Source: Candidatus Poribacteria bacterium
GTDB lineage: Bacteria; Poribacteria; WGA-4E; WGA-3G
Direction: 5' to 3'
Assembly: GCA_965220325.1 (NCBI GenBank)
Contig: OZ244821.1
Span: forward strand, 1,331,820-1,395,819
DNA: 64,000 bases
Part shown: positions 47,671 through 64,000 of the stretch, one piece after another
How positions within the stretch are numbered: the stretch's first letter is position 1
How the letters are laid out: each line of letters starts with the position of its first letter
Program-made: the position numbers and the translations under genes
The notes under the pieces: model-generated
Databases searched by the model: none
The model's input: only the letters and a program-made list of their open reading frames with translations
What the model was told of the DNA's origin: nothing

Positions 47671-50600
47671 ATGATGAACCGATTAGATGACAACGATCCT
47701 CCGATTATGCTTGAAAGTGTAGGATTCAAGGGCAAACGCTCGTCCATCGTTCTAGTTGTATGTCTTTTATTTTTATTTTCTCTCTTCGTAATTACGAGTT
47801 GCGGTCCACTGGTAACCACCGATCCGCAATCTGGCATTCCGCTTAAGGATTCTGATACAAACTCGCGTCCTAAAAAGATGTGGCCCGTGAAACGGACGCT
47901 CGTCAGCAACGAAGTCAACTGTATTGCAGCAGATTCGGAGAACGTATGGATTGCAACAGCACACGGGATTTCGCGTTGGGAACGCACCGAAGATAAATGG
48001 CTGCACTACACGATGGAAGACGGACTGGCGAACGATATGGTGAACGCCGTTGCGATTGATGGGCAGTGGGTCTGGTTCGCTACGGATGAAGGCGTGAGTC
48101 GCTACGATATACAAACGGATACCTTTGCGACCTTCCGAACTATTGACGGCTTAGCGAGCGACCAGGTCTCCTCTATTGCTATTGATGGAAATTACGTCTG
48201 GTTCGGAACGTCTAATGGACTCAACCGCTATGACAAAACAATTGACAGTTGGGCGGTACGTACCCGGAAAGACGGGTTGGTCAGCAAAATAATTACAACC
48301 ATCGCTGTTGAGCCGGAGTACGTCTGGGTCGGCACCGATAGGGAAATCAACCCCGATCCGCATGGATGGGATCGGGATCCGAGGTTCAGCAAAGGCGGTG
48401 TGAGCCGCTACCATCGAGATACGGATTCATGGAATAATTATACAAAATCAGATGGTTTGATAGGCAGCGAAATCGCTACTATTGCCGTGGACGATGACAG
48501 CGTTTGGTTTGGGACAGAAAAAGAAGGGGTCAGTCAATACAATCAGGTCGATCAGACCTTCATTAAGACGTATACGAAAACCGACCTGTTGAAAAGCAAT
48601 ATGATGACCTGTATCCGTACAGATGGCTTCCAAGTCTGGTTCGGGACCGCCAACGCCGGTGTACACCGATTTATCAAACCCGTCAATACCTGGGTGCATT
48701 ACACCAAAGCAGACGGACTGTCAAGCAATCATGTGAGTTGGATTACCACACACGGTAATGATGTCTGGTTTGCGAGTAAAGAGGATGGGGTGAGCCGCTT
48801 TGATAAAGTAACCGGTGAATGGATAATTTACAAACAAGCCGATTTTCTTGCAGATAACGATGTCCGAGCGATAACACGTGATACCGATGGGAACCTCTGG
48901 ATGGCAACAGTCGGCGGAATCTCGGTTTACGTGCCTCAAACGCGGAGTTGGGAAATTATATCCAAAGAAGATGGACTGCCAACGCCATACATCACGTCAA
49001 TACTTATTAGCCAGAATAGTCAACAGCCATCAGGTAAAAAGGCTGGTCAGTTAAGAGATGGATCCACTGAACCAGATTCCTCTTTGCTGATAGCCGACAA
49101 CCGACAGCAGACAGCCATTTGGATCGGCAGCGATCGAGGGCTTGGTACAGCTACAGATATAAGCACCGAATGGACTTTTCATACGCCGCGAAATAGCAAT
49201 CGGCAGTCAGCAGACAGCAGACAGCAAGAGGCTGTCGGAGCATCGAAAACATCTTCGCCGACAGCAGACAGCAGACAGTTTCCGACAGCCATTCACAGCG
49301 AAGCGTTTGTGACCGCCCTTGATACCGATGCGGCACGCGCAAACTCTGTTATCTGGCTCGGTACCAGTTTAGGACCCGCCATGTATGATCCAATATCTCA
49401 AAAATGGACCCAGCTTGACGTGCCGGATGCCCCCAAAGATCCGCTTATATTATCTGTGCTTGTTCACGATGGGAGTGTTTGGTTCGGGGGTGCTGAGGGG
49501 GTTTGGCGATATTTGATCGCCGATAAGCAGATGCACCCTGCTATCGATGGGCTTCCCGACCTGTATGTTAATGTCCTCTTCTCCACGGGTGAAAAAGGGA
49601 AAGAGGAGACACTTTGGGCAGGAACACGCCGTGGGCTTGCCAGGTATGACATCAACCGCCAGCGTTGGGTCCCGTTATCCTTTAACGCACAATTACCCTC
49701 CCCCAATGTTACTGCGCTCGCTTTTCGAGATGGCACGCTCTGGATTGGCACACCACAAGGTCTCGGAAGCTACACGATTGTTTCCGATTCTTGGAATTCG
49801 CTCTCAAACGTACCGTATAACATTCGCGACATACTGTGTGCGGAAACCGATGAAATACTTTGGCTAGCGACGGACATCGGTCTCGTTGAATATCATAGCC
49901 GTGAAAAAACCGAAAACGTAGTCCGTAATGTAATGAAGGACGGGTCCACGGAGAAGCACTTGAAAACACTGGGGAAACACCCCAGCAAAAACACCCGCCT
50001 CACCGAACCGCAAGGTACTATAAAAATACATCAATCCCGTCCCGTGCGGGAACCGTTCTTTGAGACCAGAGTCTCACACATCAAATTTGATGGCGCTTAC
50101 ATCTGGTTTAATAATTGGAGAGCTTCGCCGAACGGTAGTATCGTGCGTTTTCATCGCCCAACAGCAACGTGGCGACGTTTCACGCGTTTAGATATTCTGC
50201 AATCCACGCAGAAGAGATCCATGACCTTTATCCGTTGGACCTACGTCGATACTAATGCCGTCTGGTTCACCACGGACTACGGTGTTCTCCGTTATAATAA
50301 AACTACGGATACGTGGCAGCATTTTACGACAGAAGATGGACTCTCTACAGACGATGTGGATAAAATTGCTGTCAGTGAGCAGAGCGTCTGGGTTATTCCG
50401 ATGATAGGTTTGGAATTAAACCGTTATGATAAAGCAACTGGAACGTGGGAAGTGGTAGAAGAAGAGGGGCACCGTGAGATTGAGACTATAAAATCACTCG
50501 GGGTTGATGGCCCGAACGTCTGGTTCGCGTCTGGGCGCGGACTCACGCGTTACAATGAGGTCACCGGTGAATGGAAAAATTTCGGACCCAGGGACGGATT

Positions 50601-52146
50601 GGCAGGTAGAGGCGCCGAATGGATTACTGTGGATGACGATTTTATTTGGGTTGCGCGTTCGGAATGGGACAGAGGCAGCAACCGTCCATTATCCCGATAC
50701 GATAAGAAAACAAAAAAGTGGACAACTTTCTCAACGAATGACGTACTTGCTGCTAGGACCATTAGACGCATTATCGCTACAGAGAACGATGTCTGGATAC
50801 TCTACAGACCCTGGGATGACGCCGGTGTCACCCGATACGATCGGCGTACAAAAGAGTGGACGACAATCCGCTCTGGCCGCGGAACGCTCGAACTCGCAGC
50901 CGATGACGATTATCTCTGGTTAGCTGCACCCAACGAAGGGCTTCGACGATTTCATTTTGCCTCCGGCACCTGGACAACGTTTAAAGATATCGAGGGGCTG
51001 CTCCATAATCACGTCGGTGAGTACGGGCTTGCAGTCGATCAAGACTATGTATGGGTCGGAACCTTACGAGGGCTTTCGCGTTATGACAAGCGGAAGGAAT
51101 CCTGGACACCTCTGACATCACTGCCAACCCTTTTGGGACGCACCATCCGGACGGTAGATACAGATGAACGTTTCGTCTGGATCGGTTCCGATAAAGGGAT
51201 GTCCCGCTACGACAAGGTTTTAGGTACCTGGAAAAATTATCGACAGAAGGGTGGGTCTGAAAACATAGAAACCCACGGCGGTCATTGGCACCGACATGGC
51301 AGGAAAAAGAGGGACTCCCTCTCCGATAACGTTGTGAGTTCTATCGTTGTTGATGAACAATACGTCTGGATCGGGACACGCGATGGCGCGAACCGTTTTG
51401 ATAAGATAGCATTGCGGTGGGACCAATACAAAACTGAGCATGGGTTGCCTGCGAATAATATAACTTCTGTTAGTAGCGATGGCAGTAGCATCTGGGTGGG
51501 AACTAATTCCGGGATTGGGAAGTATCCGCGCACAGCGGATGACCTCAACGCATGGATTACTTACACATCTGGCACTGAAATCCAACCGTCTGCCGTATCT
51601 AAAGAGTTCGCAGAATCATTGGTTACCGATCAAATCTGGTGTATCACGGCGAGTAAGAGACACGTCTGGGTCGGCACACGCCGCGGGGTGAGCAAATACG
51701 ATGTGGGTAAAGACATCTGGAAAACAATCACAGTGGAAGATGGACTCGCAAGCGATGAAGTCAGTTGTATCGCTATCGATGGCGATCGCGTCTGGTTTGG
51801 CAGTGATCGTGGTGTAACGCTCTATAATGAAAAGGCAGACGTTTGGGCTGCCTATACAACAGAAGATGGACTCGCAAGCAACAAGGTTACCACCATCGGT
51901 GTTGATGGCACAGAAGTCTGGATCGGTACTTACAATGCCGGGGTCAGCCGGTTCGATCAGTTGACGAATACCTGGACAACTTACACACGAGATGATGGTT
52001 TGGCACATAATGGTATCCTTTCCATGGCTATTGATAGTAACTATGTCTGGTTCGGCACCTATCGCGGGTTGAGCCGCTTCGATAAACGCACAGGCATCTG
52101 GACGGTCTTCACAGAGGTCTATGGACCAGAAGACATTTTGAGGTAG
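47671..52146 (+). CDS. Membrane-anchored/lipoprotein giant (1491 aa) made almost entirely of two-component-regulator propeller (Reg_prop) repeats
   Basis: N-terminal hydrophobic segment ending ...FVITSCG. More than 25 repeats of the pattern V..IA.D...VW(F/I/V)(G/A)T..G(L/V)SRYD....W..YT..DGL. No kinase, HTH or other output domain. Confidence 0.75.
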   Translation: MMNRLDDNDPPIMLESVGFKGKRSSIVLVVCLLFLFSLFVITSCGPLVTTDPQSGIPLKDSDTNSRPKKMWPVKRTLVSNEVNCIAADSENVWIATAHGISRWERTEDKWLHYTMEDGLANDMVNAVAIDGQWVWFATDEGVSRYDIQTDTFATFRTIDGLASDQVSSIAIDGNYVWFGTSNGLNRYDKTIDSWAVRTRKDGLVSKIITTIAVEPEYVWVGTDREINPDPHGWDRDPRFSKGGVSRYHRDTDSWNNYTKSDGLIGSEIATIAVDDDSVWFGTEKEGVSQYNQVDQTFIKTYTKTDLLKSNMMTCIRTDGFQVWFGTANAGVHRFIKPVNTWVHYTKADGLSSNHVSWITTHGNDVWFASKEDGVSRFDKVTGEWIIYKQADFLADNDVRAITRDTDGNLWMATVGGISVYVPQTRSWEIISKEDGLPTPYITSILISQNSQQPSGKKAGQLRDGSTEPDSSLLIADNRQQTAIWIGSDRGLGTATDISTEWTFHTPRNSNRQSADSRQQEAVGASKTSSPTADSRQFPTAIHSEAFVTALDTDAARANSVIWLGTSLGPAMYDPISQKWTQLDVPDAPKDPLILSVLVHDGSVWFGGAEGVWRYLIADKQMHPAIDGLPDLYVNVLFSTGEKGKEETLWAGTRRGLARYDINRQRWVPLSFNAQLPSPNVTALAFRDGTLWIGTPQGLGSYTIVSDSWNSLSNVPYNIRDILCAETDEILWLATDIGLVEYHSREKTENVVRNVMKDGSTEKHLKTLGKHPSKNTRLTEPQGTIKIHQSRPVREPFFETRVSHIKFDGAYIWFNNWRASPNGSIVRFHRPTATWRRFTRLDILQSTQKRSMTFIRWTYVDTNAVWFTTDYGVLRYNKTTDTWQHFTTEDGLSTDDVDKIAVSEQSVWVIPMIGLELNRYDKATGTWEVVEEEGHREIETIKSLGVDGPNVWFASGRGLTRYNEVTGEWKNFGPRDGLAGRGAEWITVDDDFIWVARSEWDRGSNRPLSRYDKKTKKWTTFSTNDVLAARTIRRIIATENDVWILYRPWDDAGVTRYDRRTKEWTTIRSGRGTLELAADDDYLWLAAPNEGLRRFHFASGTWTTFKDIEGLLHNHVGEYGLAVDQDYVWVGTLRGLSRYDKRKESWTPLTSLPTLLGRTIRTVDTDERFVWIGSDKGMSRYDKVLGTWKNYRQKGGSENIETHGGHWHRHGRKKRDSLSDNVVSSIVVDEQYVWIGTRDGANRFDKIALRWDQYKTEHGLPANNITSVSSDGSSIWVGTNSGIGKYPRTADDLNAWITYTSGTEIQPSAVSKEFAESLVTDQIWCITASKRHVWVGTRRGVSKYDVGKDIWKTITVEDGLASDEVSCIAIDGDRVWFGSDRGVTLYNEKADVWAAYTTEDGLASNKVTTIGVDGTEVWIGTYNAGVSRFDQLTNTWTTYTRDDGLAHNGILSMAIDSNYVWFGTYRGLSRFDKRTGIWTVFTEVYGPEDILR

Positions 52147-52195: not shown

Positions 52196-54148
52196 ATGAA
52201 GATAAAAACAGATGCCCGAAAGTACCTGATCCTTGGCTCGCTCCTCTTGTTGTTCAACGGTTCTCTGGTGTTCTATGCTGAGGCAGAGGACGTTTACAGT
52301 CTATTTGGTAAGTTGTTCTTGTCCGGACGGGTCGAATACGATTTCACAAACCGACGCAACTTCCTCGCTGGCACAGAGGAGGAACAGGTTAGGCAAGATA
52401 ATTTCGATTTTGATCGCCTTTTTCGACGCGGTTTCCACAGCGTTATGGTGATTGAAGAGACCGCAGGGAGCGTCAAAAATATCCTGAGTCTCGGAGAAGT
52501 TCCGACAACCTTCACCAAATTTACCTTCGATCAGATTGACCTAAGCGGCGTCCGCTGGGAGGTCCGCTCCAACCGCACCGATTGGACAATTCTAATGGTA
52601 CCCGGTTTGCTGAACCGACTGAACGGTCAAGAGGAACAGACTGAAGGTTCGGGGATCGGTTTGCGCGAAGTAACAAAGTTCGGTAGGTCGCAGCTGGGGC
52701 TTTCTTGGTATTTCCGTGAAGTCCCCGTATGGGCAGTGGACTTGGAAACCAATTTCACAAACTACGGTGTGAAAGCGGAGATAGCTATCACTCCCAAAAA
52801 TGCATTGCAAAAGAACTTGGGCTCACGGTTCGATGCAATGACGACAGTTTTCAAAGCCTTCCAAACCGTTGGTGATACCATTTTTCAGGCAGAAGCGTTT
52901 CGCGTCGGTCCACGATTTGATGCCTCCCGATCCGTCGGCGATAACGATGACCAAGACCGCTACTCCGATAACACGTTTCCTGACCCACCATCTCTGATTA
53001 TTCCTGGCGACCTTGATAAAAATAACAACGGCATCTTCGACTATGAGGATGACATCCTCCTTTTCGATGTCGATGAGGATTTCCTTGACGAGAGTGACCG
53101 GAATAACAACGGTATTCGGGATGAGGAGGAAAATGATAAGGACCCCAATTACGAATTCGATGTCGGACTCCGAGGCATTCGGCTTTTTATGAACCGTAAG
53201 ATAAGTCAACAGGCGAGCGTTGTTGACCTTGATCTCGGATTGCAGATAGAAGAAAACCTCAGACTCAGAAATACGCCCACCTCAACGAAAGCACTCGCTA
53301 ACCTCGTTTACCAGAGACAACTTGCACAAGCTTCCTCGCTCATTTTCGAGAACGAACTCAAATTGGTGAAGGATCGGATTCCCGACGAAACGTGGTATTA
53401 CGCCGGATTTTTGGGGAGACAGGATGAACGGCTCTATCGATCGCAACCAGAAATCCAGAAAATGGTGAGAGAGGGAGACCTGCAGTTCTTTTATGTTGAT
53501 GGGGGTGTCGAAGTCGAAAAAAGGCGCAGGGATCCCCGATTGATGCAGAACGATCTCATTAACACGGCTAAAGTCACATGGGAATATCGCGGAATTGAAC
53601 GAATGGTTACGACCGCTCGTGCCAAAATTCAGTACGATTATGATTTCGACAAAGATAACGAACATTACGAAGTCGGCATTTTCAAGACGCTGTACCGCCT
53701 ACGTCCCTCCAAATCTCTGGAGATCAGTCCCATGTTCAAGTATACTATTCGGAACGGTTTTCGGATGGCAGAGGACCGAGTCGAATATCTTCCGCTAAGT
53801 GCGGAAATTGACGGCGAAGAGGTATCGCGCAGGCTTCGATTGCGTGAGATTGAACAGACGCACGTACGCGATATGACACCAGCACTTATCCTTAAGGTCG
53901 TCTATCAGTTCACGAAAACCATCAAGCTCACCGGTGGTGGTCAAATCCTTTTGTTCAACGATATGCGTGATGATGCGAACGATTTTGTCCGTCAAGCACT
54001 TTTAGCAGAGATGGAGAAGAGTTTTGTCGCTTACGAGAAGCAGCTTTTTCTGCATATCGGCGCACGGTACATAGACCAACGCGCAATCGGAGATGTTAAC
54101 GATCAGAATTATATGGAAACTTTTGTCAGAGTTTTTGGGAAATTTTAA
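52196..54148 (+). CDS. Outer-membrane beta-barrel candidate with Asp-rich Ca-binding-like insert (paralog of 14085..17438)
   Basis: Signal peptide. Asp-rich stretch: DNDDQDRYSDN...DLDKNNNGIFDYEDDILLFDVDEDFLDESDRNNNGIRDEEENDKDPNYEF. C-terminal ...TFVRVFGKF matches ...TFVRAMVGF of the paralog. Confidence 0.55.
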   Translation: MKIKTDARKYLILGSLLLLFNGSLVFYAEAEDVYSLFGKLFLSGRVEYDFTNRRNFLAGTEEEQVRQDNFDFDRLFRRGFHSVMVIEETAGSVKNILSLGEVPTTFTKFTFDQIDLSGVRWEVRSNRTDWTILMVPGLLNRLNGQEEQTEGSGIGLREVTKFGRSQLGLSWYFREVPVWAVDLETNFTNYGVKAEIAITPKNALQKNLGSRFDAMTTVFKAFQTVGDTIFQAEAFRVGPRFDASRSVGDNDDQDRYSDNTFPDPPSLIIPGDLDKNNNGIFDYEDDILLFDVDEDFLDESDRNNNGIRDEEENDKDPNYEFDVGLRGIRLFMNRKISQQASVVDLDLGLQIEENLRLRNTPTSTKALANLVYQRQLAQASSLIFENELKLVKDRIPDETWYYAGFLGRQDERLYRSQPEIQKMVREGDLQFFYVDGGVEVEKRRRDPRLMQNDLINTAKVTWEYRGIERMVTTARAKIQYDYDFDKDNEHYEVGIFKTLYRLRPSKSLEISPMFKYTIRNGFRMAEDRVEYLPLSAEIDGEEVSRRLRLREIEQTHVRDMTPALILKVVYQFTKTIKLTGGGQILLFNDMRDDANDFVRQALLAEMEKSFVAYEKQLFLHIGARYIDQRAIGDVNDQNYMETFVRVFGKF

Positions 54149-54335: not shown

Positions 54336-54722
54336 ATGAAAACCAAAAGATTACACCCATTAGAACTTGAAGTGATGAAAGTGGTATGGAAACTGACGCG
54401 TGCCACGGTCAACGATGTCCTTGATAATATTAACCGTAAGCTCGCCTATACTACTGTCGCTACAACGATGAAAAGTCTCGAAAAGAAGGGTTTTTTGTCG
54501 CATCAAGTGGATGGTAGGACGTTCGTTTACCAGCCTTTGGTCAAAGAGGCAGAGATTACGCATTCCATGCTCAGCGATTTACTGGAACGCCTTTTTGACA
54601 ACTCTGCCGAAAAACTGGTGAACACACTCCTTGAAGTGCGACAAACCAGCGCAGATGAACACAATCGCTTACAAGCGTTGATTAACAACTACCAGCCTGA
54701 AGGAGAAGAAACCGATGACTAA
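54336..54722 (+). CDS. BlaI/MecI/CopY family transcriptional repressor
   Basis: Winged-helix N-terminus: LHPLELEVMKVVWKLTRATVNDVLDNINRKLAYTTVATTMKSLEKKGFLSHQVDGRTFVYQP. Overlaps the next gene by 8 nt. Confidence 0.85.
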   Translation: MKTKRLHPLELEVMKVVWKLTRATVNDVLDNINRKLAYTTVATTMKSLEKKGFLSHQVDGRTFVYQPLVKEAEITHSMLSDLLERLFDNSAEKLVNTLLEVRQTSADEHNRLQALINNYQPEGEETDD

Positions 54723-57105
54723 GCAAATTTTCCTTTCTTTACTAAATTGCTCGTGGCAGTGGGTGCTATTGGGTGGTTTGACATGGTTCATCACCGGTGC
54801 TGTGTTTCGCAAAAAGCGTCGTTCTAACACCACTGTTCACCTGTTATGGTTGTTGTCTTTACTCAGTTTACCGATCCTGTTCGGTTTAAATCAGTTTGTG
54901 CCAGCACTCTCTATAGGCGGAAACCCGGTGTCAGAATTAACACAGGTGGAATTAACACAGGTGGAGCCAGTAAACATGTCGGGTTTAGCTGTGCCAGCTA
55001 CAGACCTACCGCAGGTTTCATCCGTGGGCAGCGACACGCAAACCGGAAATCAACGCCTTACAGCGGATAAGTCCTTTTTCAGTTGGGAAACCAAGACGGA
55101 ACTGCTCTTGGGCATCTGGGCAATCGGGGCGTTCACTATGCTCGTCCGTTTCGTGTTCGGCTTGTGCCGAATCTATCAACTCCGACGCAATGCCGTAGTC
55201 GCTGATGATTCATATCAGGCAATCTGTCGAGGCTTGGCGCGGCAGCTGGACATAAAACGGACGGTCACCGTGTGCATCTCGGATCGGATAGCATCACCGA
55301 TCTCATTTGGTTGGTTATCACCGTCCATCCTGATTCCACGAAAGCTGAATTTGGAGCAGTTTGAGTTGGTAGCGGCCCATGAATTAGCACATCTACAACG
55401 ACTTGATTGGTTAACGACCCTCTTTTCGCACGTGATTGGGGTTGTTTTCTTTTTTCATCCAATTTACTACTTCCTCAATCGCGAACTCGTCCGCCTACGG
55501 GAACGCATCTGTGACGATTGGGTTATCCGATTGACAGGTGCCAGAAAAAACTACGCGCAGTGTCTATTGGATCTGGTTCGCCACAGAGATAGAACTATTC
55601 CACTCGCTTTGTCCCTCAATCAGCCGTCGCAGTTGGAATCTCGGATTGACGCTATTTTGAAAGACAATCGGCAGTTAGACGTACAATTGAAGCCGCGCTT
55701 GCGGCTGATAGCAGCAACCTTGCTCCTTACCTGTCTGCCCTTATTGGCAATGGCACAACTGGTTCCGCTGAAAACTTTCCAGGTCTCGCTGTTCGCTCAG
55801 ACACCTGAGAAATCAGAAGAAGCGGTTGAAAAGCAGCACGGACAAGAAGCGAAAGTTGAGAAAATCGGTGAGAAAGCGGACACCGAGGATTCGGGCATTG
55901 AAGTGGAAGACCCGACGCTATTTGACGGGTCCGAGGAAAACGGAATCGTCTCCGGACCACAGCCCGGGGAAAAATTGCCGCCGTTGAAAGTAACTGGCAT
56001 TCGTGGCGACCTCGACGGTGAAACGTTTGATATCACCGCTAAAGCAGATGGAAAACCGATCATCTTATTCTTGCAAGACCCCGATGAAGCTGGCATAAAG
56101 GGACTTGTTCACGTGTTCGAGTGGCTGAAAAAAATTGGTGATTTCAAGAAAAAACAGAACAACGCGTCTGGTCTTGAATTTCAGATAGGCGTTGTGTTCC
56201 TTACAGATGATGCTGATGCGTTGCCTGAATCGGCTCGGGATGTTTTTGAAAAGCACCTTCCAGACGAGATTATAGTAGGGATCTCTCCCGATGGGCGTGA
56301 AGGGCCAAGCAGCTACCGGTTGAATCGGAGTGTTGCACAGACCGTTCTTATCGCTGAGGATGGGCAAGTGCTGCACAACTTCGCGTTCACAGAACCGATG
56401 CGCTCTCTCGGTTCACGCGTCGTTGGTACTATCGCCGATACGATCGGCGTAGTGTTTGTGCCGAAGCCTGTCGTCATTACCGAGATTGAGAGAGACAACG
56501 CTTCTGATCTTCCTGAGTGGGTAGAACTCCGCAACCTAAACGATAGCGAACTGAACTTGGAAGGTTGGACACTGGGCTCTACCACTACTATATTGAATGG
56601 CACGGAGTGGACTATCCAATTCAATGAAGATGTTAAAATCCCTGCTAACGGTTATCTGCTCCTTGACGCGGAATCGGTGAAAAAATTAGACATTACTGAG
56701 GGTGGATATGTGGTACTCCTGAGAAGAAAAGGGGAACGCAGTCCGACAATGGAGAAGGGCGCTGCTCACAATCGGGACCAAGACCCCTCGCTGGAAGAAA
56801 TCATTAAAAAGTTGGAGGAAAACGGGGTATTGATTCAACGATTCCTCATGGAGAAAGATGGGGCGCGTAATCATAAGCAGGGTCTCTCGCTGGAAGAAAC
56901 CATCAAAGAAGTGACGAAGGACACAGAGTTGATCCAACAACTCCTCGAGCAGCTGAAGGAAGGTGAGGGTGCGCGCAAGCGTTTGCGGGATCTCTCGCTG
57001 GAAGAAACCATCAAAGGGTTGAAGGAAGACATCGCACAACTCAAAGAACACCTCAAGCAACTCGAGGAAAAACACAAGCGAGTTTTTTCACCAAAAGAGG
57101 ACTAA
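54715..57105 (+). CDS. BlaR1/MecR1-like M56 membrane metalloprotease with a non-canonical extracytoplasmic region (thioredoxin-like segment, lamin-tail domain, coiled-coil repeats)
   Basis: N-terminal TM helices. M56 zinc motif AAHELAHLQRLDW. A further TM helix (LIAATLLLTCLPLLAMA). LTD pattern VVITEIERDNASDLPEWVELRNLNDSELNLEGWTL. Three LSLEE(T/I)IK-containing heptad-rich segments at the C-terminus. No penicillin-binding-type sensor domain recognised. Confidence 0.75.
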   Translation: MTKQIFLSLLNCSWQWVLLGGLTWFITGAVFRKKRRSNTTVHLLWLLSLLSLPILFGLNQFVPALSIGGNPVSELTQVELTQVEPVNMSGLAVPATDLPQVSSVGSDTQTGNQRLTADKSFFSWETKTELLLGIWAIGAFTMLVRFVFGLCRIYQLRRNAVVADDSYQAICRGLARQLDIKRTVTVCISDRIASPISFGWLSPSILIPRKLNLEQFELVAAHELAHLQRLDWLTTLFSHVIGVVFFFHPIYYFLNRELVRLRERICDDWVIRLTGARKNYAQCLLDLVRHRDRTIPLALSLNQPSQLESRIDAILKDNRQLDVQLKPRLRLIAATLLLTCLPLLAMAQLVPLKTFQVSLFAQTPEKSEEAVEKQHGQEAKVEKIGEKADTEDSGIEVEDPTLFDGSEENGIVSGPQPGEKLPPLKVTGIRGDLDGETFDITAKADGKPIILFLQDPDEAGIKGLVHVFEWLKKIGDFKKKQNNASGLEFQIGVVFLTDDADALPESARDVFEKHLPDEIIVGISPDGREGPSSYRLNRSVAQTVLIAEDGQVLHNFAFTEPMRSLGSRVVGTIADTIGVVFVPKPVVITEIERDNASDLPEWVELRNLNDSELNLEGWTLGSTTTILNGTEWTIQFNEDVKIPANGYLLLDAESVKKLDITEGGYVVLLRRKGERSPTMEKGAAHNRDQDPSLEEIIKKLEENGVLIQRFLMEKDGARNHKQGLSLEETIKEVTKDTELIQQLLEQLKEGEGARKRLRDLSLEETIKGLKEDIAQLKEHLKQLEEKHKRVFSPKED

Positions 57106-57207
57106 ATTATAACCCAAGTTGCCACTTTGTGACGCGACAAAGTCAACGATATGGCACATCTCTGAGAACCCAAGCAAAATTAACTGGCACAAGCCGTAAA
57201 TTTTGTC

Positions 57208-57262
57208 AGGACTTACGCATTTTTCCGTGATAACGGACATCCGATACACTGCAGGCGGGGTT
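57208..57262 (-). repeat. 55-nt intergenic repeat, copy 3 (reverse orientation)
   Basis: The reverse complement reads AACCCCGCCTG, 27 nt, then AAAAATGCGTAAGTCCT. Same length as copies 1 and 2. Confidence 0.6.
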
Positions 57263-57421
57263 TCAAACCCTGAAGAAACGCCCAAGCAAAAACCCTGCAG
57301 TGGGCTGCGTAAGTCCTGTTATTGCGTTTTTTGGATAGAATTATGCACCCGTTCCATCCATAAGTAGCGTCACCAGAAATGAAAGCACAATTATGCAACC
57401 ATCTATTTGTGGAGACGACCA

Positions 57422-60400
57422 ATGAAAAACAACGATGCCGAACTCATCCAACGCGTCCTTGAAGGCGACGATGATGCCTTCACTGTGCTGGTGAGAAAAT
57501 ACCAGAAGCAGGTGCACGCACTCGCATGGCGGAAAATCGGGGATTTCCATATCGCTGAGGAAATCACGCAGGACACTTTTCTGAAAGCATACAAACGGCT
57601 TTCCACACTCAAGAAACCGCAGCGGTTCGCAAGTTGGCTTTATGTCATCGCAGCGAATCGTTGTAGCTCATGGCTCCGGAAAAAGCGGTTGTGGACGCAG
57701 CCACTTGAGAACCTTGAGGAAACAGACGACAAGCAGCTACAACAATCGACGTATTCTGGATACGTCGCTGCGGAAAACGAACGCACAACCGTAGAGGCAC
57801 AACGCGATGTTGTTAAAAGGCTGCTTGCGAAACTACAGGAAAGTGAACGAACTATCATGACACTACACTACTTCGGTGAAATGTCCTGCACAGAGATCGG
57901 CACCTTTTTGGGAGTATCCAAAAATACTATCAAGAGCCGCCTCCGCCGCGCACAACAGCGCTTAAAGAAGGAGGAACCGATGATTCGAGAGGCTTTAGAA
58001 AACTTCCAGATCACGCCGAACCTCACAGAGAGTATCATGCAAGAGATCGCTCGCATTAAACCCGCTGCACCGTCGGGGAGTAAGCCATTCATGCCGTGGG
58101 CAGTCGCAGCTTCCACGGTGGCGGTGGTGTTACTAATGCTGGGCATCGGAAACCAACAACACGCACTCCGTTTCCAGAAACCCTATAACCTCGATGCCGC
58201 ATCGGAGATGACGGTTGAACTTATTGAAGCACCTGTTGTGCTGAACGTCGTATCTAAACCAGATACACGCACACAAATAGGGAGCACCAATACACCGGGC
58301 AAAAGTAGCAAGTCCGAACGACCACCAGATGATGCACCAGCACTCGTCGCAGAAGCACACGCGGATGAGCTTGTCGATGATTATACAAAATGGCATCTCC
58401 CAAAAGAAGCGAAAGCGCGGTTTGGAAAGGGAGGAATTAATGTCCTTCAGTTTTCACCGGATGGTACACAAATCGCTGTCGGAAGCAGCATCGGTGTGTG
58501 GCTATATGACCTAAATACTGGAAAAGAGATTACTATGTTCCCGGGAATGTGTGAATCTATCGCTTTTTCACCTGATGGGCAATTTATCGCAAGCGGTGGC
58601 GGGAAATATACATTTCATGCAGGATTCAGACTGTGGGAGATTGCGACTAGTCAAAAAGTGGCACTTATTGATGGCCCTCCTGCTGTCTCAGCACTGCAAT
58701 TTTCTGAAGATGGCGAAACACTACTCGGTTTGGGGAACTGGGGAGATTCAATCAGCAAGTTAAACGTTGAAACTGGAGAGGGAAATGTGAAAAATATTGA
58801 AGACCGTTCTTGGGAAAAAATACCAAGGAGAAGTATGCCGGAACCGTATGCCCTCACGGACGATAAATTTGCCGTTGGTGGCGAGAACGGAAAAATTCAG
58901 TTGTGGGGCACAACGATTGGTGAACAACTATCTACCCTCAGCGGACATGGAGAGGATTTAAAGAATCCGTTAATTGAGAAGCTTCAAGAGATGATTCAGG
59001 GTCAGCCGCCTGTTCCAGAGGGAAATAACCATGTTTTAGTCTTGGAATTTTCGCCTGATGGCACTAAACTCGCCAGCGGAAGCAAAGACAAAACAGTGCG
59101 ATTATGGAACACTACTACCGGCAACGAATTGGCTATTCTACGAAAACACACAGGATGGACAAACGTGTTAGCATTCTCTCCAAACGGGGAAAGGCTCGCA
59201 AGTGGAGGCACCGATAAAACAGTGCATTTGTGGGATACTGACACAGGTAAACTGATCACGACACTCAACAAACATCTCAGTAGTATTGCTGCACTCTCGT
59301 TTTCGCCTGATGGTAGAACACTTGCAAGTGGAAGCGCGGATGGCACTATTCGGTTCTGGAACACAGAAACCGGAGATTTACTACCCCTCAATATTACGGA
59401 ACACACGGAGTGGGTGAAAGCAGCCTCTTTCGTTAAAGATAGTTCTACACTTGCAAGCATCGCTTTTAATGGCGTAATTACTTTTTGGGATCTGCAGACA
59501 TCTCAAAAAACCGATGTTCAGATGACAGGACATCGAGATTTCTTACCGGCTTTGGCGTTTTCATCGGATGGGATTAAACTCGCAAACGTTAGCGCAAAAG
59601 CCACTATGTTCTTTGATCAAAGTTCCGGTATTTCAACATGGAGTGCAGACCATCTGGTTCGGCTGACGGATGTGACGACAGGGCGTGAGTTAGGGACATT
59701 AAATGAGACAAATGCTGGTGTTAATCCAGGCGCAAGTATGACTTTTTCGCCTGACAAAAAAACGGTGGCATTCGGAGAACAAGGCAAAATTCATTTATGG
59801 AATACGGAGACTGGTGCCAGCTTTGAAATCCCTCTTGTAGATAAACACAATGCTGATGGAAATGACGAGTTGGCACCTCCACCAGATATGATGATGCTTC
59901 TCCCAGTCCCTCAAATCGGTGCCCTGGTGTTCTCACCAGATGGGAAAAAACTTGTCAGTGGAACCATGGGCGGAAAGGTCCAGATGTGGGACGCTGAAAC
60001 TGGCGTTGAATTAGCCCCTTTCTTTGACGATGAAACCAAAAAAGAACCCGGTAAACTGAAGGCTACGGTCTCGTATCAGGATGGTATCACAGCGTTGGCA
60101 TTCTCTCCAAATGGTGCCTTGCTTGCTGTCGGAAGTTATAAACGTATCCGTTTACTCGGAAGCCATAAACAGAGTCGTCTTAAGGAAGTCCCCCACGGCG
60201 TCGAAACGTTAGTGTTTTCACCTGATAGTACTATGTTTGTTACTGGGCTCAGAAACGGAGGGATTGAATTATGGGATTTGCCAACCGGAGATAAACTCAC
60301 AATACTTGATGGGCATTCAGAACCAGTGGGAACCTTGGTATTTTCACCTGATGGAAAAACACTCGTCAGCACGGGACAAGACGGAACTATCCTCGTTTGG

Positions 60401-60448
60401 GATTGGAACGAAGTGCTCAAAAACTCGACTGTACAGGAAAAAGAGTGA
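57422..60448 (+). CDS. ECF sigma factor fused via one TM helix to a large extracytoplasmic WD40 repeat region
   Basis: Sigma70 region 2 (HIAEEITQDTFLKAYKRL...WLYVIAANRCSSWLRKK) and region 4 (IMTLHYFGEMSCTEIGTFLGVSKNTIKSRLRRAQQRLKK). TM helix WAVAASTVAVVLLMLGI. About 14 WD40-type repeats (FSPDG..LASGS.D.T(V/I)(R/H)(L/F)W(D/N)). ATG at 57422 with GGAG upstream. Confidence 0.8.
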   Translation: MKNNDAELIQRVLEGDDDAFTVLVRKYQKQVHALAWRKIGDFHIAEEITQDTFLKAYKRLSTLKKPQRFASWLYVIAANRCSSWLRKKRLWTQPLENLEETDDKQLQQSTYSGYVAAENERTTVEAQRDVVKRLLAKLQESERTIMTLHYFGEMSCTEIGTFLGVSKNTIKSRLRRAQQRLKKEEPMIREALENFQITPNLTESIMQEIARIKPAAPSGSKPFMPWAVAASTVAVVLLMLGIGNQQHALRFQKPYNLDAASEMTVELIEAPVVLNVVSKPDTRTQIGSTNTPGKSSKSERPPDDAPALVAEAHADELVDDYTKWHLPKEAKARFGKGGINVLQFSPDGTQIAVGSSIGVWLYDLNTGKEITMFPGMCESIAFSPDGQFIASGGGKYTFHAGFRLWEIATSQKVALIDGPPAVSALQFSEDGETLLGLGNWGDSISKLNVETGEGNVKNIEDRSWEKIPRRSMPEPYALTDDKFAVGGENGKIQLWGTTIGEQLSTLSGHGEDLKNPLIEKLQEMIQGQPPVPEGNNHVLVLEFSPDGTKLASGSKDKTVRLWNTTTGNELAILRKHTGWTNVLAFSPNGERLASGGTDKTVHLWDTDTGKLITTLNKHLSSIAALSFSPDGRTLASGSADGTIRFWNTETGDLLPLNITEHTEWVKAASFVKDSSTLASIAFNGVITFWDLQTSQKTDVQMTGHRDFLPALAFSSDGIKLANVSAKATMFFDQSSGISTWSADHLVRLTDVTTGRELGTLNETNAGVNPGASMTFSPDKKTVAFGEQGKIHLWNTETGASFEIPLVDKHNADGNDELAPPPDMMMLLPVPQIGALVFSPDGKKLVSGTMGGKVQMWDAETGVELAPFFDDETKKEPGKLKATVSYQDGITALAFSPNGALLAVGSYKRIRLLGSHKQSRLKEVPHGVETLVFSPDSTMFVTGLRNGGIELWDLPTGDKLTILDGHSEPVGTLVFSPDGKTLVSTGQDGTILVWDWNEVLKNSTVQEKE

Positions 60449-60584
60449 CCAACCCTATCTGCTTGGCAATCCTCCGCTCTAATGGTGTATAATTAATTGA
60501 ACGAAAGTTTACAGTTAATGTGATTTGAAAATAAGCGTGTGTCTTCTACAATAGCTCTGATTCAAAAACGTGAGCGGAGGAATA

Positions 60585-62855
60585 ATGAACAGGTTTTATA
60601 GGGTTCTACTTATATCTACACTGCTAATCGGTTCGGTTGTATTCGCAATCGAAGCACAAAAGGACGAAGCAACCGAAAATTATACAAAATGGGAACTTCC
60701 AAAAGCAGCGAAAGCACGATTCGGAAAAGGTGGGATTAATGCCATTCAATTCTCACCAGATGGCACACAAATCGCTGTCGCAAGTAGCATCGGTATATGG
60801 ATTTACGACCTAAAAACTGGAAAAGAGATAGACATACTACCGGGAAGATCTCAATCCATCGCTTTTTCACCGGATGGCAGATTTATCGCAAGTGGCGGCG
60901 GAAAATTCGCATTTCGTGGCGGCGGACTTCAATTGTGGGAAACAGCCACCGGTCAGAAACTTCAACTTATTGATGGGCATCACTCGGCATCAGAACTGCA
61001 CTTCTCTGAAGATGGAAAAACACTTGTCACTTTAGAAGGCTGGGGAGATGCAATCGGTAGATTAGATGTTGAAACTGGAGAAGGGAATGTCAAAAATATT
61101 GAAGACCGTTCTTGGGAAAAGATGACGCAGCGGAGCAGTCCTGAACCTTATGCACTCACGCACGACAAATTTGCGATCGGAGGTCAGGTCGGGAAGATTG
61201 AATTGTGGGATACAACGACAGGCGAAAAACTGTCTATGCTCAGTGGTCACGGCGGACCTTTACCGGCAGTAGATAGAGAGATCGTAATTCCGGAGGGGGT
61301 TCGTGATCAGATGTTTTTCCCGGACGCGGGTGTTCACGTGTTAGTCTTGAAATTTTCGCCGGACGGAACAAAACTCGCAAGCGGAAGTAAAGATAAAACC
61401 GTCCGATTATGGGATACAAACACTAACGAAGAATTGGTTATCCTACAAAAACATACTGGATGGATAAATGCATTAGCATTCTCCTCCGATGGTAAACAAC
61501 TCGCCAGTGGCTGCACCGACAAAACAGTGAATATATGGGATACCGATACGGGTGAACTCATCGCAACATTCACCGGACATCTAAACGGTATTGTCGCACT
61601 ATCGTTTTCACCCGACGGTAGCATGCTCGCAAGTGGTAGCACGGATGGAACGATAAAATTCTGGAACACCCAAACAAAAGATTTGCTACCTATCAGCATT
61701 ACAGAACATACGAAGTGGGTCAAAACGGTGTCCTTCTCTGAAGATAATTCCGCGCTCGTAAGTGTCGCATTTAACGGCATCATTGACTTTTGGAACCTGA
61801 AGACATGGCAAAAAACCGGTTCTCAAAATGCTGTACATGGGGATTTATTGCGCGGCTCAGTACTTTCACCCGACGGAACAAAACTCGCAAGCGCTGGCGC
61901 AAAAGCCACTATGTTTTTTGAGGCAGGCAGTTCAGGTGCAACCCTCTCCTCTCAAATGGCGGATCGACGAGTTCAGCTAACGGAGGTGGGGACAGGACAT
62001 GAATTAGCAGCCCTAAATGAGACAGATGGTGTAATGGATCCAGGCAACAGTATGGCTTTTTCGCCGGATGGAAAAACAGTAGCCTTTGATGGCTCGGGCA
62101 AAATTTATGTGTGGAATACAGAGACAGGGAACAGCGTTAACATCTCGCTTATAGATGAAGAAAATGTGCCAGAAAATCCAAACAATGCCGATGGAAACGG
62201 TGATTTCGAGTTTCCACCCGGCCTGATGCAGCGTCATATTATACCTTCCATCAGCGCCTTGGTGTTCTCGTCTGACGGAAAGAAACTTATTAGTGGAAAT
62301 ATGGGCGGGAAGGTACAGATGTGGGACGCTGAAACCGGTGTCGCGTTAGCTCCTTTTCTTGCGGGACAGGATATGGAGAAAGCTGTAAAAGGCGGCCCTG
62401 GTAATTTTACTGTTACATATAGTGATATTGTTAGGGCACTTGCGTTCTCTTCAAACGGCACGTTGCTCGCTGTCGGAAGTAACCAAAAAATCCGTTTGTT
62501 GGGGAACAGCAAGCAGCCTCCTCTTAAAGATGCACCACGCGGTGCTGAATCGTTAGTGTTTTCTCCTGATGATACCATCCTCGTTGTGGGACTTAGAATG
62601 GGCGGAATCGAATTATTCGATTTGACAACGGGTAAGAAAATTACCACGCTCAATGGACACACAGCAACAGTAGAGACGTTAGTCTTTTCACCCGATGGAA
62701 AACACTCGTCAGCACAGGACAGGACGGAACTATCCTTGCGTGGGATTGGAACGAAGCCGTTAAATAGTTATAAGTTAAGAACTTGTGTCTGGTACATTTT
62801 CTATTACTGCCACAATAATACTCTTAACCTACCACTTATAACTTACCACTTATAA
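60585..62855 (+). CDS. Secreted WD40 repeat protein, paralog of the sigma-fused WD40 region; 3' end frameshifted
   Basis: ATG at 60585 with GGAGG upstream. Signal peptide MNRFYRVLLISTLLIGSVVFAIEA. Collinear with residues ~330-1008 of the upstream protein. After 62702 the frame departs from the paralog, at an A4 versus A5 run. The paralog-like frame would stop at 62765..62767. Confidence 0.75.
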   Translation: MNRFYRVLLISTLLIGSVVFAIEAQKDEATENYTKWELPKAAKARFGKGGINAIQFSPDGTQIAVASSIGIWIYDLKTGKEIDILPGRSQSIAFSPDGRFIASGGGKFAFRGGGLQLWETATGQKLQLIDGHHSASELHFSEDGKTLVTLEGWGDAIGRLDVETGEGNVKNIEDRSWEKMTQRSSPEPYALTHDKFAIGGQVGKIELWDTTTGEKLSMLSGHGGPLPAVDREIVIPEGVRDQMFFPDAGVHVLVLKFSPDGTKLASGSKDKTVRLWDTNTNEELVILQKHTGWINALAFSSDGKQLASGCTDKTVNIWDTDTGELIATFTGHLNGIVALSFSPDGSMLASGSTDGTIKFWNTQTKDLLPISITEHTKWVKTVSFSEDNSALVSVAFNGIIDFWNLKTWQKTGSQNAVHGDLLRGSVLSPDGTKLASAGAKATMFFEAGSSGATLSSQMADRRVQLTEVGTGHELAALNETDGVMDPGNSMAFSPDGKTVAFDGSGKIYVWNTETGNSVNISLIDEENVPENPNNADGNGDFEFPPGLMQRHIIPSISALVFSSDGKKLISGNMGGKVQMWDAETGVALAPFLAGQDMEKAVKGGPGNFTVTYSDIVRALAFSSNGTLLAVGSNQKIRLLGNSKQPPLKDAPRGAESLVFSPDDTILVVGLRMGGIELFDLTTGKKITTLNGHTATVETLVFSPDGKHSSAQDRTELSLRGIGTKPLNSYKLRTCVWYIFYYCHNNTLNLPLITYHL

Positions 62856-62858
62856 CTA

Positions 62859-63887
62859 TTAAAACCTAATCCTAAGAGACATGCGGTGGCTGCCGCCTAA
62901 TGCGGGGTGATTCGCGAACGCGTAGTCTAACCCAGCACCGGCACCGGTAACGAAGCTTAGGTTCAATCCTGCACCTGCTGTCAAACGTCGAATGCTTTCG
63001 ATACCCTTGCGTTCATCAAAACCGATGCGCAGCGAAAGCAGATCAAAGAGAGTCCATTCAGCACCGCCATGCAACTCAACACCCTCCTGAATATAGGTAT
63101 CCAAAGCGAAAATGAGTGTGCTTTGGAAAATAGCGAGTGCATGTGTCGTCGCAATGCCGATTTTCAGATTCGGCGATATTGTCTCGGTGTGCGAGGCCAA
63201 GTCTGCTGATGGCGGAGGCGTGTTCCAATAAATTTTTGTTTGAAATGCGTCGCTCGCTTGCAATCCGAGCGTCAGGCGATGCGGTCTCTCGGCAGATGTC
63301 GTTGCAACGAAACCGATATCAGCACCCCCACCGATAGCGTTTGTGGTCCGATAGCCACTCATGTAGAGAAGTTTAAGGGTACCGCCGAGATGGAAATTGA
63401 CACCACTGAAGGAAGGGATCGTCCAACCAGAGGAGAGCAGGAACGCGTTGTCTGTATTGTTGAAAGTTCCCATTACCTGTGGACGGTTTGTTGGTCCGAC
63501 AGGACGACTCACGACTGGCAGGCTGGTGATCGGAATATCGTTAACACCGACACGTAGCCAACTGACACCAATCGCGCCACGATTTTTCAGGGGATGGATG
63601 TAACTCACAAAATCGTAAGCATCCTGTCCGTTGAGTGTGGAATGCATGAAACTGACCTCATATCGGGTAAGTTGCCCCAACCCAGCAGGGTTCCAGTAAG
63701 CCGCGTAAGCGTTATCACTCAACGCAGTACCCGCGCCTCCCATAGCGAGCGCGCGCGCACCGACACCAAGCGTCAGGAAGTCCGCCGTATATCTTGCATC
63801 CACAGATTGGATGGTCCCCGCAAAGAAGGTTATTATGGTCACAAAGAAGTAGACAATATTTTTTTTAAGATGTTTCATTTTTTTCAT
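62859..63887 (-). CDS. PorV/PorQ-like outer-membrane beta-barrel protein (T9SS-associated family; tentative)
   Basis: Signal peptide, then FLTLGVGARALAMGGAGTALSDNAYAAYWNPAGLGQL, a motif characteristic of PorV/PorQ-type proteins. C-terminal ...HRMSLRIRF. The ATG at 63887 has GAGGTG upstream. Confidence 0.5.
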   Translation of the reverse strand: MKKMKHLKKNIVYFFVTIITFFAGTIQSVDARYTADFLTLGVGARALAMGGAGTALSDNAYAAYWNPAGLGQLTRYEVSFMHSTLNGQDAYDFVSYIHPLKNRGAIGVSWLRVGVNDIPITSLPVVSRPVGPTNRPQVMGTFNNTDNAFLLSSGWTIPSFSGVNFHLGGTLKLLYMSGYRTTNAIGGGADIGFVATTSAERPHRLTLGLQASDAFQTKIYWNTPPPSADLASHTETISPNLKIGIATTHALAIFQSTLIFALDTYIQEGVELHGGAEWTLFDLLSLRIGFDERKGIESIRRLTAGAGLNLSFVTGAGAGLDYAFANHPALGGSHRMSLRIRF

Positions 63888-64000
63888 GATTAACACCTCA
63901 GTACTGATCCATTTCATTACACGGTGGTTTCCAACGTGTTCAAACCCCTTCGGATGCTTCTAAACCAGCTGGAACTGACCAAAAACCATCGTGAAACGTA

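Follow-up and report, generated by a model that had tools for sequence, protein, structure and literature searches.

An apparently undescribed, Poribacteria-specific family of putative membrane-tethered ECF sigma factors with modular ectodomains

Results

The gene studied here lies at positions 57422 to 60448 on the + strand of a 64-kb stretch of contig OZ244821.1 (Candidatus Poribacteria bacterium, GCA_965220325.1); we refer to the whole stretch as the window, and all coordinates are those of the window unless otherwise indicated. The coding sequence, delimited from the listing of open reading frames (ORFs) and from relatives with the same layout, specifies a protein of 1008 residues that joins an extracytoplasmic function (ECF) sigma factor, a single transmembrane (TM) helix, and a WD40 region. 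As judged from sequence comparisons, it is one copy in a large, modular, apparently undescribed Poribacteria-specific family of putative membrane-tethered ECF sigma factors. Each copy is most likely read from its own ECF-type promoter by the sigma factor that it encodes or by a close paralog, which would constitute a positive feedback loop. The value of the finding lies in this family membership more than in the single gene.

Domain architecture of the fusion protein

Sigma-70 region 2 (57488 to 57688, +, residues 23 to 89) scored 56.1 bits against Pfam PF04542 (cutoff, 24) and was modeled by AlphaFold with a predicted local distance difference test (pLDDT) value of 80 to 92. Sigma-70 region 4 (57812 to 57973, +, residues 131 to 184), in which the recognition helix ..NTIKSRLRRAQQRL.. 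carries Arg175, matched both PF04545 (Sigma70_r4, 45 bits; cutoff, 24.1) and PF08281 (r4_2, 44.1 bits; cutoff, 25.7). The cutoffs of Sigma70_ECF PF07638 (32.7 versus 21.1 bits) and of NCBIfam TIGR02937 (sigma70-ECF, 94.4 versus 42.9 bits) were also exceeded, and no Pfam match to sigma region 3 or region 1.1 was found in the fusion protein. With regions 2 and 4 only, both above curated thresholds, the protein is an ECF (group IV) sigma-70 factor; an earlier note on this DNA, made from the sequence, had already placed these two regions within residues ~1 to 195.

The protein contains exactly one hydrophobic segment (residues 222 to 245; Kyte-Doolittle 19-residue mean above 1.6), as the earlier note had read it. 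Within this segment, hydropathy defines the TM helix as WAVAASTVAVVLLMLGI (58097 to 58147, +, residues 226 to 242), which is rich in Ala, Ser, Thr, and Gly. It is preceded by a putative cytoplasmic linker (57980 to 58096, +, residues 187 to 225, MIREALENFQITPNLTESIMQEIARIKP..; consensus conservation, 80 to 88%) and followed by a putative extracytoplasmic juxtamembrane segment (58148 to 58276, +, residues 243 to 285, ..RFQKPYxxDAxSEMTVELIEAPxVLN..; consensus conservation, 76 to 80%) and by a variable low-complexity tether (58277 to 58396, +, residues 286 to 325; pLDDT, ~30). The linker, the TM helix, and the 43-residue juxtamembrane segment are conserved to the level of the sigma domain. A Pro/Ser/Ala-rich linker of ~100 residues had been proposed to follow the helix; such a linker is present, but it measures 83 residues (243 to 325; Pro+Ser+Ala, 22/83) without predicted structure, and only its last ~40 residues are low complexity and variable, the first ~43 being conserved family-wide. 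The juxtamembrane segment, predicted to be disordered, might be the site of action of a protease or a partner.

The WD40 region comprises 14 blades by motif (Pfam E value, 6e-75), in agreement with the ~14 repeats counted earlier. Structure prediction, which the earlier note had put forward as a check, returned beta-propellers (AlphaFold predicted template modeling [pTM] score, 0.74), and the best fold matches of a Foldseek search against the PDB included the tandem seven-bladed double propellers 2ymu and Aip1 (1nr0). On the basis of motifs, AlphaFold, and Foldseek, the ectodomain is modeled as two seven-bladed propellers with approximate boundaries, propeller 1 (58397 to 59386, +, blades 1 to 7, ~residues 326 to 655) and propeller 2 (59387 to 60445, +, blades 8 to 14, ~residues 656 to 1008). 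If periplasmic, this double propeller may serve as a ligand-binding sensor.

We infer an N-in/C-out orientation, which would place the WD40 region outside the cytoplasm as the earlier note had proposed, because a sigma domain must be cytoplasmic to work and there is a single TM helix, and because a free paralog of the ectodomain encoded downstream (see below) carries a cleavable-looking signal peptide in place of the sigma domain and TM helix. The distribution of charges agrees with this orientation: Lys and Arg are more common on the N-terminal than on the C-terminal side of the TM helix in 157 of 185 family members, a positive-inside pattern.

Integrity of the open reading frame

The ORF runs uninterrupted on the + strand from 57407 (TTG, the mechanical start) or 57422 (ATG) to 60448. 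We take the ATG at 57422 as the genuine start instead of the TTG at 57407, because MKNxDxxLIQRV forms the N terminus of all relatives and this codon is preceded, at 8 nt, by a GGAG.

The earlier note had named read support across ~58000 to 58400 as the place where a chimera of two genes would be revealed. We used Logan unitigs from sequencing runs that carry window sequence. The short-read unitigs break at 57970 to 57991, between sigma region 4 and the linker, with an approximately eight-fold depth spike, and taken alone this break would suit an artefact of assembly or annotation in which two separate genes, one for a sigma factor and one for a WD40 protein, had been joined. However, the break and the spike are explained as a repeat effect, since many paralogs share the stretch from 57970 to 57991, and unitig depth is equal on either side (161 versus 151 in one run, 62 versus 64 in another). 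Collinearity extends across the junction in L001, the nearest ortholog, whose sigma domain is 95% identical; the corresponding values are 92% from the linker through the TM helix to the juxtamembrane segment, 82% for the tether, and 81% for the ectodomain. P0278, from another assembly, also has 1008 residues and is 98% identical over a 766-residue ectodomain query. Furthermore, complete ORFs of 850 to 1280 residues with the same layout occur at more than 100 loci in independent Candidatus Poribacteria assemblies, including closed long-read chromosomes. We thus rejected a chimera as the source of the architecture and regard an artefact of this kind as extremely improbable. At most, the pairing of a particular sigma domain with a particular ectodomain could be swapped in short-read assemblies, which leaves the architecture itself in no doubt.

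Size, modularity, and distribution of the family

A one-genome-per-species search returned 391 relatives, and 79 loci were kept for comparison. These loci come from Candidatus Poribacteria or from unlabeled sponge or coral metagenome-assembled genomes (MAGs), and the named homologs are all Candidatus Poribacteria. An exhaustive profile search of 1.8 billion representative proteins yielded 247 clusters (50% identity) with E values below 1e-30 to the sigma domain, and the best 150 of these 247 are nearly all 400 to 1380 residues long. The fetched loci hold 256 distinct sigma domains. Among 193 distinct complete proteins, the median length is 985 residues and 181 have exactly one hydrophobic segment; conversely, ~94 of the 120 best homologs of the ectodomain are sigma fusions of ~1000 residues. 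One closed 6.66-Mb chromosome carries at least 14 paralogs and another at least 12, and tandem copies are frequent, with two to four within 13 kb.

A word-seeded search with the N-terminal 340 residues listed only proteins of 255 to 590 residues. We rejected truncated proteins as the norm of the family, since the loci and two further searches give ~1000 residues. Relatives of that length are abundant in the same database, so that the word-seeded list alone would wrongly make long fusions appear rare.

The N-terminal module is conserved and the ectodomains are diverse. Compared with the window copy, family members show a median identity of 77% in the sigma domain, 72.5% from the linker to the juxtamembrane segment, and 43.5% in the tether, and identity in the ectodomain ranges from 17 to 81%. 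At least 10 unrelated clusters of ectodomains were distinguished. WD40 proteins form the largest group (138 members), followed by BNR/sortilin-type propellers (29), TM-less proteins with a DnaN-like extension (8), PD40/DPPIV_N (5), DUF3108-like (4), and transglutaminase core (3) proteins, a group of 3 without an ectodomain Pfam match, single members with LRR and with LamG plus TPR, and a further singleton without an ectodomain Pfam match. Between paralogs of the same genome, the N-terminal module is 72% identical in amino acids and only 48% identical at four-fold degenerate sites, so purifying selection and not recent gene conversion maintains it.

Our literature search found no publication tying Poribacteria to ECF sigma factors or to sigma-WD40 fusions; in the literature found, WD40 repeats of Poribacteria are treated only as eukaryote-like repeat proteins.

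The TM-less branch with DnaN-like extensions (575 to 577 residues) carries all three DNA polymerase III beta-clamp domains directly behind sigma region 4. Its members lie outside the window, in other Poribacteria loci (L115:4638-6368, L148:4844-6577, L160:3278-5005, and L194:3541-5274), in operons with the order family promoter, ABC exporter, sigma-DnaN, and ABC-2 permeases. To our knowledge, no sigma factor with a fused sliding-clamp fold has been described.

A family promoter element and its pairing with sigma region 4

Family genes share the element TTTGCAGAATTnTG-N20/21-GCGTCAC, in which CGTC lies ~54 nt before the ATG (~30 nt in one subtype) and which precedes 150 of the 193 distinct family genes at a constant distance. 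In the window, this ECF-type element (57330 to 57373, +) consists of the upstream block TTTGGATAGAATTATG (consensus TTTGCAGAATTnTG), the -35 hexamer TGCACC (57344 to 57349), an 18-nt spacer, and the -10 hexamer CGTCAC, the motif GCGTCAC being at 57367 to 57373 and CGTC 54 nt before the ATG. The element resembles a SigW-type promoter, for which the pattern is TGAAAC-N16-CGTA. When 596 Gb of bacterial and archaeal genomes were scanned for exact matches, at least 118 stretches were recovered, compared with ~4 expected by chance, and among the matches listed only 3 were outside Poribacteria or unlabeled MAGs. Family sigma genes follow immediately after ~108 of 123 distinct sites; at a further 5, the element stands at the start of an operon in which an ABC exporter precedes the family sigma gene.

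The upstream block and GCGTCAC are invariant across the family, whereas the hexamer 17 to 18 nt upstream of CGTC differs by subfamily and follows the identity of residue 175 in the recognition helix. TGCACC goes with Arg (88 genes), TG[T/A]GAC, spaced one nt shorter, with Tyr (30 genes), TGCAAC with Ser (17 genes), and TGAAAC with His (5 genes). Further residues separate the two largest classes, namely, 151, 160, 167, and 178 in sigma region 4 and 47 in sigma region 2. Since the variable hexamer covaries with the recognition helix of sigma region 4, we assign it as the -35 element. Its covariation with residue 175 points to autoregulation of the family genes and makes this residue a candidate specificity determinant for -35 recognition.

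Two observations weigh against this interpretation. The association between -35 class and sigma region 4 is confounded by shared subfamily ancestry: a promoter and its sigma gene are inherited together, so the class counts are not independent events. In addition, we found no other TGCACC-N17-19-CGTCA site, and hence no further target, in the window. The earlier note had proposed a search for a cognate motif upstream of 57422, of 60585, and elsewhere; the search located the site before 57422 and none upstream of 60585 or elsewhere in the window.

Just upstream of the sigma promoter is a perfect 13-bp inverted repeat, CAGGACTTACGCA/TGCGTAAGTCCTG, with arms at 57207 to 57219 and 57306 to 57318, 86 nt apart. 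The motif GCTGCGTAAGTCCT is found again before other family promoters (L063 and L050), and unitig sequence that parts from the window immediately past 62856 also contains TGCGTAAGTCCT. We may be dealing here with a dispersed, palindromic intergenic element.

Proteolytic release or activity at the membrane

SigW, sigma-E, and AlgU are freed by site-1/site-2 proteolysis of a single-pass anti-sigma factor. In IutY of Pseudomonas putida (ECF243), the only experimentally characterized sigma/anti-sigma hybrid, proteolysis by Prc and RseP releases the sigma part (PMC8999054). With somewhat better than even confidence, we propose that the window gene encodes a one-component transmembrane signal transducer and that ligand-triggered proteolytic release is its most likely mechanism. 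At rest, the sigma domain would be held at the membrane, inactive or poorly active. When the propeller binds a ligand, the conserved juxtamembrane segment would become accessible to a site-1 protease, after which an RseP-type site-2 protease would cut inside the Ala/Ser/Gly-rich TM helix. Once free, the sigma factor would associate with RNA polymerase to drive transcription from its own promoter and from further targets.

We favor release because the closest solved sigma domains and IutY are proteolytically released and because the protein combines an anti-sigma-like remnant, a TM helix rich in small residues, and a conserved juxtamembrane segment. The remnant was suggested by NCBIfam model NF052375 ("anti-sigma factor," 217 positions), of which positions 44 to 155 align with residues 190 to 289 at an E value of 5.6e-5, with a score far below the model cutoff. 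The same model weakly matched 6 of 12 diverse relatives, all with scores far below the cutoff. The segment after sigma region 4 is thus likely what is left of a single-pass anti-sigma factor devoid of its N-terminal sigma-binding helices. No anti-sigma Pfam domain, including FecR PF04773 and zf-HC2, matched residues 181 to 330 even at E values up to 10, and a linker-TM profile retrieved nothing relevant from PDB sequences.

Several findings speak against proteolytic release. The linker (40 residues, no Cys or His) is too short for a classical anti-sigma domain. An AlphaFold model of residues 1 to 330, built from a 78-sequence alignment, was confident for the sigma domains, whereas residues 195 to 321 had pLDDT values below 50 (pTM, 0.32). 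The linker was drawn as two short helices, also at pLDDT values below 50, with no confident placement on the sigma domain, so that inhibition in cis is unsupported. After the site-2 cut, an ..AIAA-like C-terminal tail could mark the sigma factor for degradation and not for activation. Clustering of the ORFs of 195 loci disclosed no conserved protease, anti-sigma, or other partner gene beside family members, and among the sequencing runs searched for the locus, no RNA run matched.

The main competing explanation is that the sigma factor is never released and works tethered, like ToxR/CadC, with the ligand changing its oligomerization or conformation while it engages RNA polymerase and promoters near the membrane. 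The conservation of the linker, TM helix, and juxtamembrane segment, which matches that of the sigma domain, fits signal transmission and not a disposable tether. A tethered mode would also suit the lack of a recognizable anti-sigma domain and of a neighboring protease gene, and double propellers are typically platforms for protein-protein interaction. However, a 40-residue linker is a short reach for a sigma factor buried in the RNA polymerase holoenzyme on chromosomal DNA, the characterized close sigma relatives and the one characterized hybrid all use proteolytic release, and we found no precedent in the literature consulted for a sigma factor that functions while anchored in the membrane. 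We therefore consider activity at the membrane unlikely and retain proteolytic release as the preferred mechanism.

Free ectodomain paralogs and a possible internal start

Downstream of the fusion gene, a free paralog of the ectodomain (60585 to 62855, +) encodes a double WD40 propeller behind a signal peptide (MNRFYRVLLISTLLIGSVVFAIEA/Q), and it shares 62% identity over 671 residues with the ectodomain of the fusion. The signal peptide site reads AEA/Q in orthologs, and the protein is predicted to be secreted. A sigma-70-like promoter precedes the gene (60525 to 60552, +, TTGAAA-16-TACAAT; 10/12 in a consensus scan) in a region that is conserved in orthologous loci, and a scan of the window did not find the family ECF motif upstream of it. 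As the earlier note had stated, no separate anti-sigma gene is adjacent to the fusion gene, the downstream gene being this WD40 paralog.

Orthologs of the free paralog stand behind the fusion gene in ~12 related genomes and are 75 to 92% identical to the window copy over the first 120 residues, so the duplication is old. In other genomes, including the closest (L001), there is no free paralog, and the fusion gene is followed at once by the syntenic UPF0164 barrel-like gene; the free paralog is therefore not an obligatory partner. The window copy also has a 1-nt deletion in an A-run (62699 to 62702, A4; the matching place in the fusion gene, 60355 to 60359, has A5), which shifts the frame of the last ~24 residues, a part of blade 14. 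The unshifted frame would end in ..KTLVSTGQDGTILAWDWNEAVK with a stop at 62765 to 62767. Unitigs from three runs all carry the deletion without variation and thus show it to be real; the last blade of the frameshifted protein is probably broken, and the protein is probably impaired. Thus, the free paralog pointed out by the earlier note does exist, but it is not a constant partner of the fusion and is frameshifted in the window genome.

In five genomes (L024, L028, L030, L032, and L033), the downstream gene is intermediate in that it keeps the linker and TM helix and has no sigma domain. These genes start at the equivalent of Met187 and use as ribosome-binding site a GGAGG contributed by Lys-Glu-Glu codons. 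In the fusion gene of the window, the ATG of Met187 lies 5 nt behind an in-frame AAGGAGG (57968 to 57982, +), at a site that coincides with the start point of these sigma-less relatives and with the unitig break.

These features raise the alternative that one gene gives two products, a start at Met187 yielding a sigma-less linker-TM-WD40 protein. Such a protein would be a decoy that competes for the ligand or the protease, or a built-in anti-sigma factor that binds the sigma domain of the fusion, and the free downstream paralogs would be its fixed stand-alone versions. The perfect Shine-Dalgarno sequence of the window copy and the use of the same site by the five sigma-less genes agree with this idea, as does the presence of GGAGG at the Met187 site in 58 of 83 family genes (70%), compared with 13% expected from codon usage. 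However, synonymous conservation at the codons of the site (0.4 to 0.66 bits) is no outlier, given an N-terminal module median of 0.4 and several 5-codon windows that score higher, at ~1.0; shared ancestry can therefore explain the site. Free paralogs are, moreover, missing from many orthologous loci, for example, L001. On balance, two products from one gene seem to us quite unlikely.

Discussion

ECF01-Gob, reportedly described by Jogler et al. in 2012, comprises planctomycetal ECF sigma factors whose C termini are extended by WD40-like repeats and is reported to have a TM helix. ECF57 (Casas-Pastor et al. 2021) likewise groups planctomycetal ECF sigma factors with such extensions, at 5.3 copies per planctomycetal genome (PMC7826278), and the regulatory mechanism of ECF57/ECF01-Gob is described as unresolved (PMC8999054). 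The Poribacteria proteins resemble these in joining an ECF sigma factor and a long WD40-type C-terminal extension in one polypeptide, an architectural resemblance that we drew from descriptions of the planctomycetal proteins, as well as in having no separate anti-sigma factor and several copies per genome. For ECF57, a review proposes control by protein interaction, not by membrane tethering. Two cysteines are described as conserved in ECF57, one in sigma region 2 and one in sigma region 4. In the Poribacteria family, Cys81 in sigma region 2 is invariant (107/107), and a second cysteine, Cys156 in sigma region 4, is present in 69 of 107 sequences (65%), with Tyr in 27/107; the window copy has both cysteines. 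In contrast to ECF57/ECF01-Gob, the family occurs in Poribacteria instead of Planctomycetes, so that the planctomycetal distribution of that group is not found, and its sigma module also carries BNR, PD40, LRR, LamG, transglutaminase, and DnaN-like extensions.

Like IutY, the window protein has, in one polypeptide, an N-terminal ECF sigma factor, one TM helix, and a C-terminal domain that would be periplasmic in the orientation proposed above. IutY, however, combines a FecI-type sigma factor with a FecR-type anti-sigma moiety and receives its signal from a TonB-dependent receptor, whereas the Poribacteria sigma factor is SigW/RpoE-like, has no FecR domain, carries a putative double-WD40 sensor, and has no adjacent TonB receptor gene. 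We ruled out a FecI/FecR-type hybrid (ECF243) by the lack of a match to FecR PF04773 and by the best sigma relatives being SigW and RpoE.

Indeed, the closest solved sigma domains are those of SigW (5wuq), an AlgU-type factor, and Escherichia coli sigma-E (E values of 8e-25 to 6e-18). The similarity to RpoE, SigW, and AlgU with their partners RseA, RsiW, and MucA extends to a promoter of the ..AAC..-N16-18-CGT type, to a single-pass membrane part with an extracytoplasmic sensing part, and to the weak match to NF052375. The differences are that the Poribacteria sigma factor and its membrane partner form one polypeptide and that the N-terminal sigma-binding helices of the anti-sigma factor are absent. 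The window gene was rejected as a SigW or RpoE equivalog because its scores were far below the NCBIfam cutoffs (SigW NF007223, 108 versus 209 bits; RpoE TIGR02939, 90.6 versus 236 bits) and because the downstream gene encodes a WD40 paralog, predicted to be secreted, and not an RsiW/RseA-type anti-sigma factor.

Actinobacterial ECF52/53 proteins are fusions in which the sigma factor is followed by a TM segment and then by a Pro-rich tether and a binding domain outside the cytoplasm, and SCO4117 is an example of the ECF48/52/53 proteins. The Poribacteria proteins show the same order of sigma domain, TM helix, tether, and putative extracytoplasmic domain. In ECF48/52/53, a zinc-finger anti-sigma (ZAS) domain lies between the sigma domain and the TM segment (PMC8999054). 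A ZAS-containing fusion was ruled out here, since the linker (residues 187 to 225) contains no Cys and no His and does not match zf-HC2. Many paralogous sigma/sensor sets per genome, with different ectodomains and autoregulated promoters, are found in the SigI-RsgI systems of cellulolytic clostridia. The Poribacteria family is alike in its multiple sets with differing ectodomains; unlike in this family, the sigma factor SigI, which is not of the ECF type, and RsgI are two distinct proteins.

How TM-extended ECF sigma factors are switched on is known by experiment for IutY only, and the Poribacteria family offers hundreds of natural variants with swappable sensors. With a defined cognate promoter and with residue 175 as a candidate, both activation and the code of -35 recognition can be put to a direct test in a heterologous host. 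WD40 and LRR "eukaryote-like" proteins are abundant in Poribacteria and have been discussed as host-manipulating effectors; they would appear to be largely signal receptors wired to transcription. More tentatively, and with clearly less than even confidence, we suggest that many of these eukaryote-like repeat proteins might be the sensors of a dozen or more tethered ECF sigma factors per genome, each with its own promoter specificity encoded in sigma region 4, and that their sigma-less paralogs might be decoys. If so, the symbiont would read host- or community-derived molecules through an array of sigma factors straight into transcription, and secreted or anchored sigma-less paralogs, possibly together with a Met187 isoform, would tune the response as decoys.

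Neighboring genes

Among the 195 clustered loci, the recurring neighbors were the family itself, antisense artefacts, the UPF0164 barrel gene, ABC-2 permeases, and housekeeping genes. In L062, a classical ECF sigma gene that lies a few kb upstream is not followed by an anti-sigma gene.

Directly upstream of the sigma gene in the window, a gene for a BlaI-type repressor (128 residues) overlaps the start of a gene for a BlaR1-type M56 peptidase (796 residues; the pair spans 54336 to 57105). The extracytoplasmic part of the peptidase comprises a lamin-tail domain and a long repetitive charged C terminus. We rejected this BlaI/BlaR1-like pair as a partner of the fusion, since it is not syntenic in any orthologous locus. 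Farther upstream, a 650-residue ORF without a Pfam match (52196 to 54148) follows a gene (47671 to 52146) for a 1491-residue protein of Reg_prop (two-component regulator propeller) repeats with PorZ-like similarity. On the other side, a gene for a UPF0164-family, outer-membrane-barrel-like protein (62859 to 63917, - strand) is convergent to the pair formed by the sigma gene and its free paralog and is the sole conserved neighbor, being present in 28 orthologous loci.

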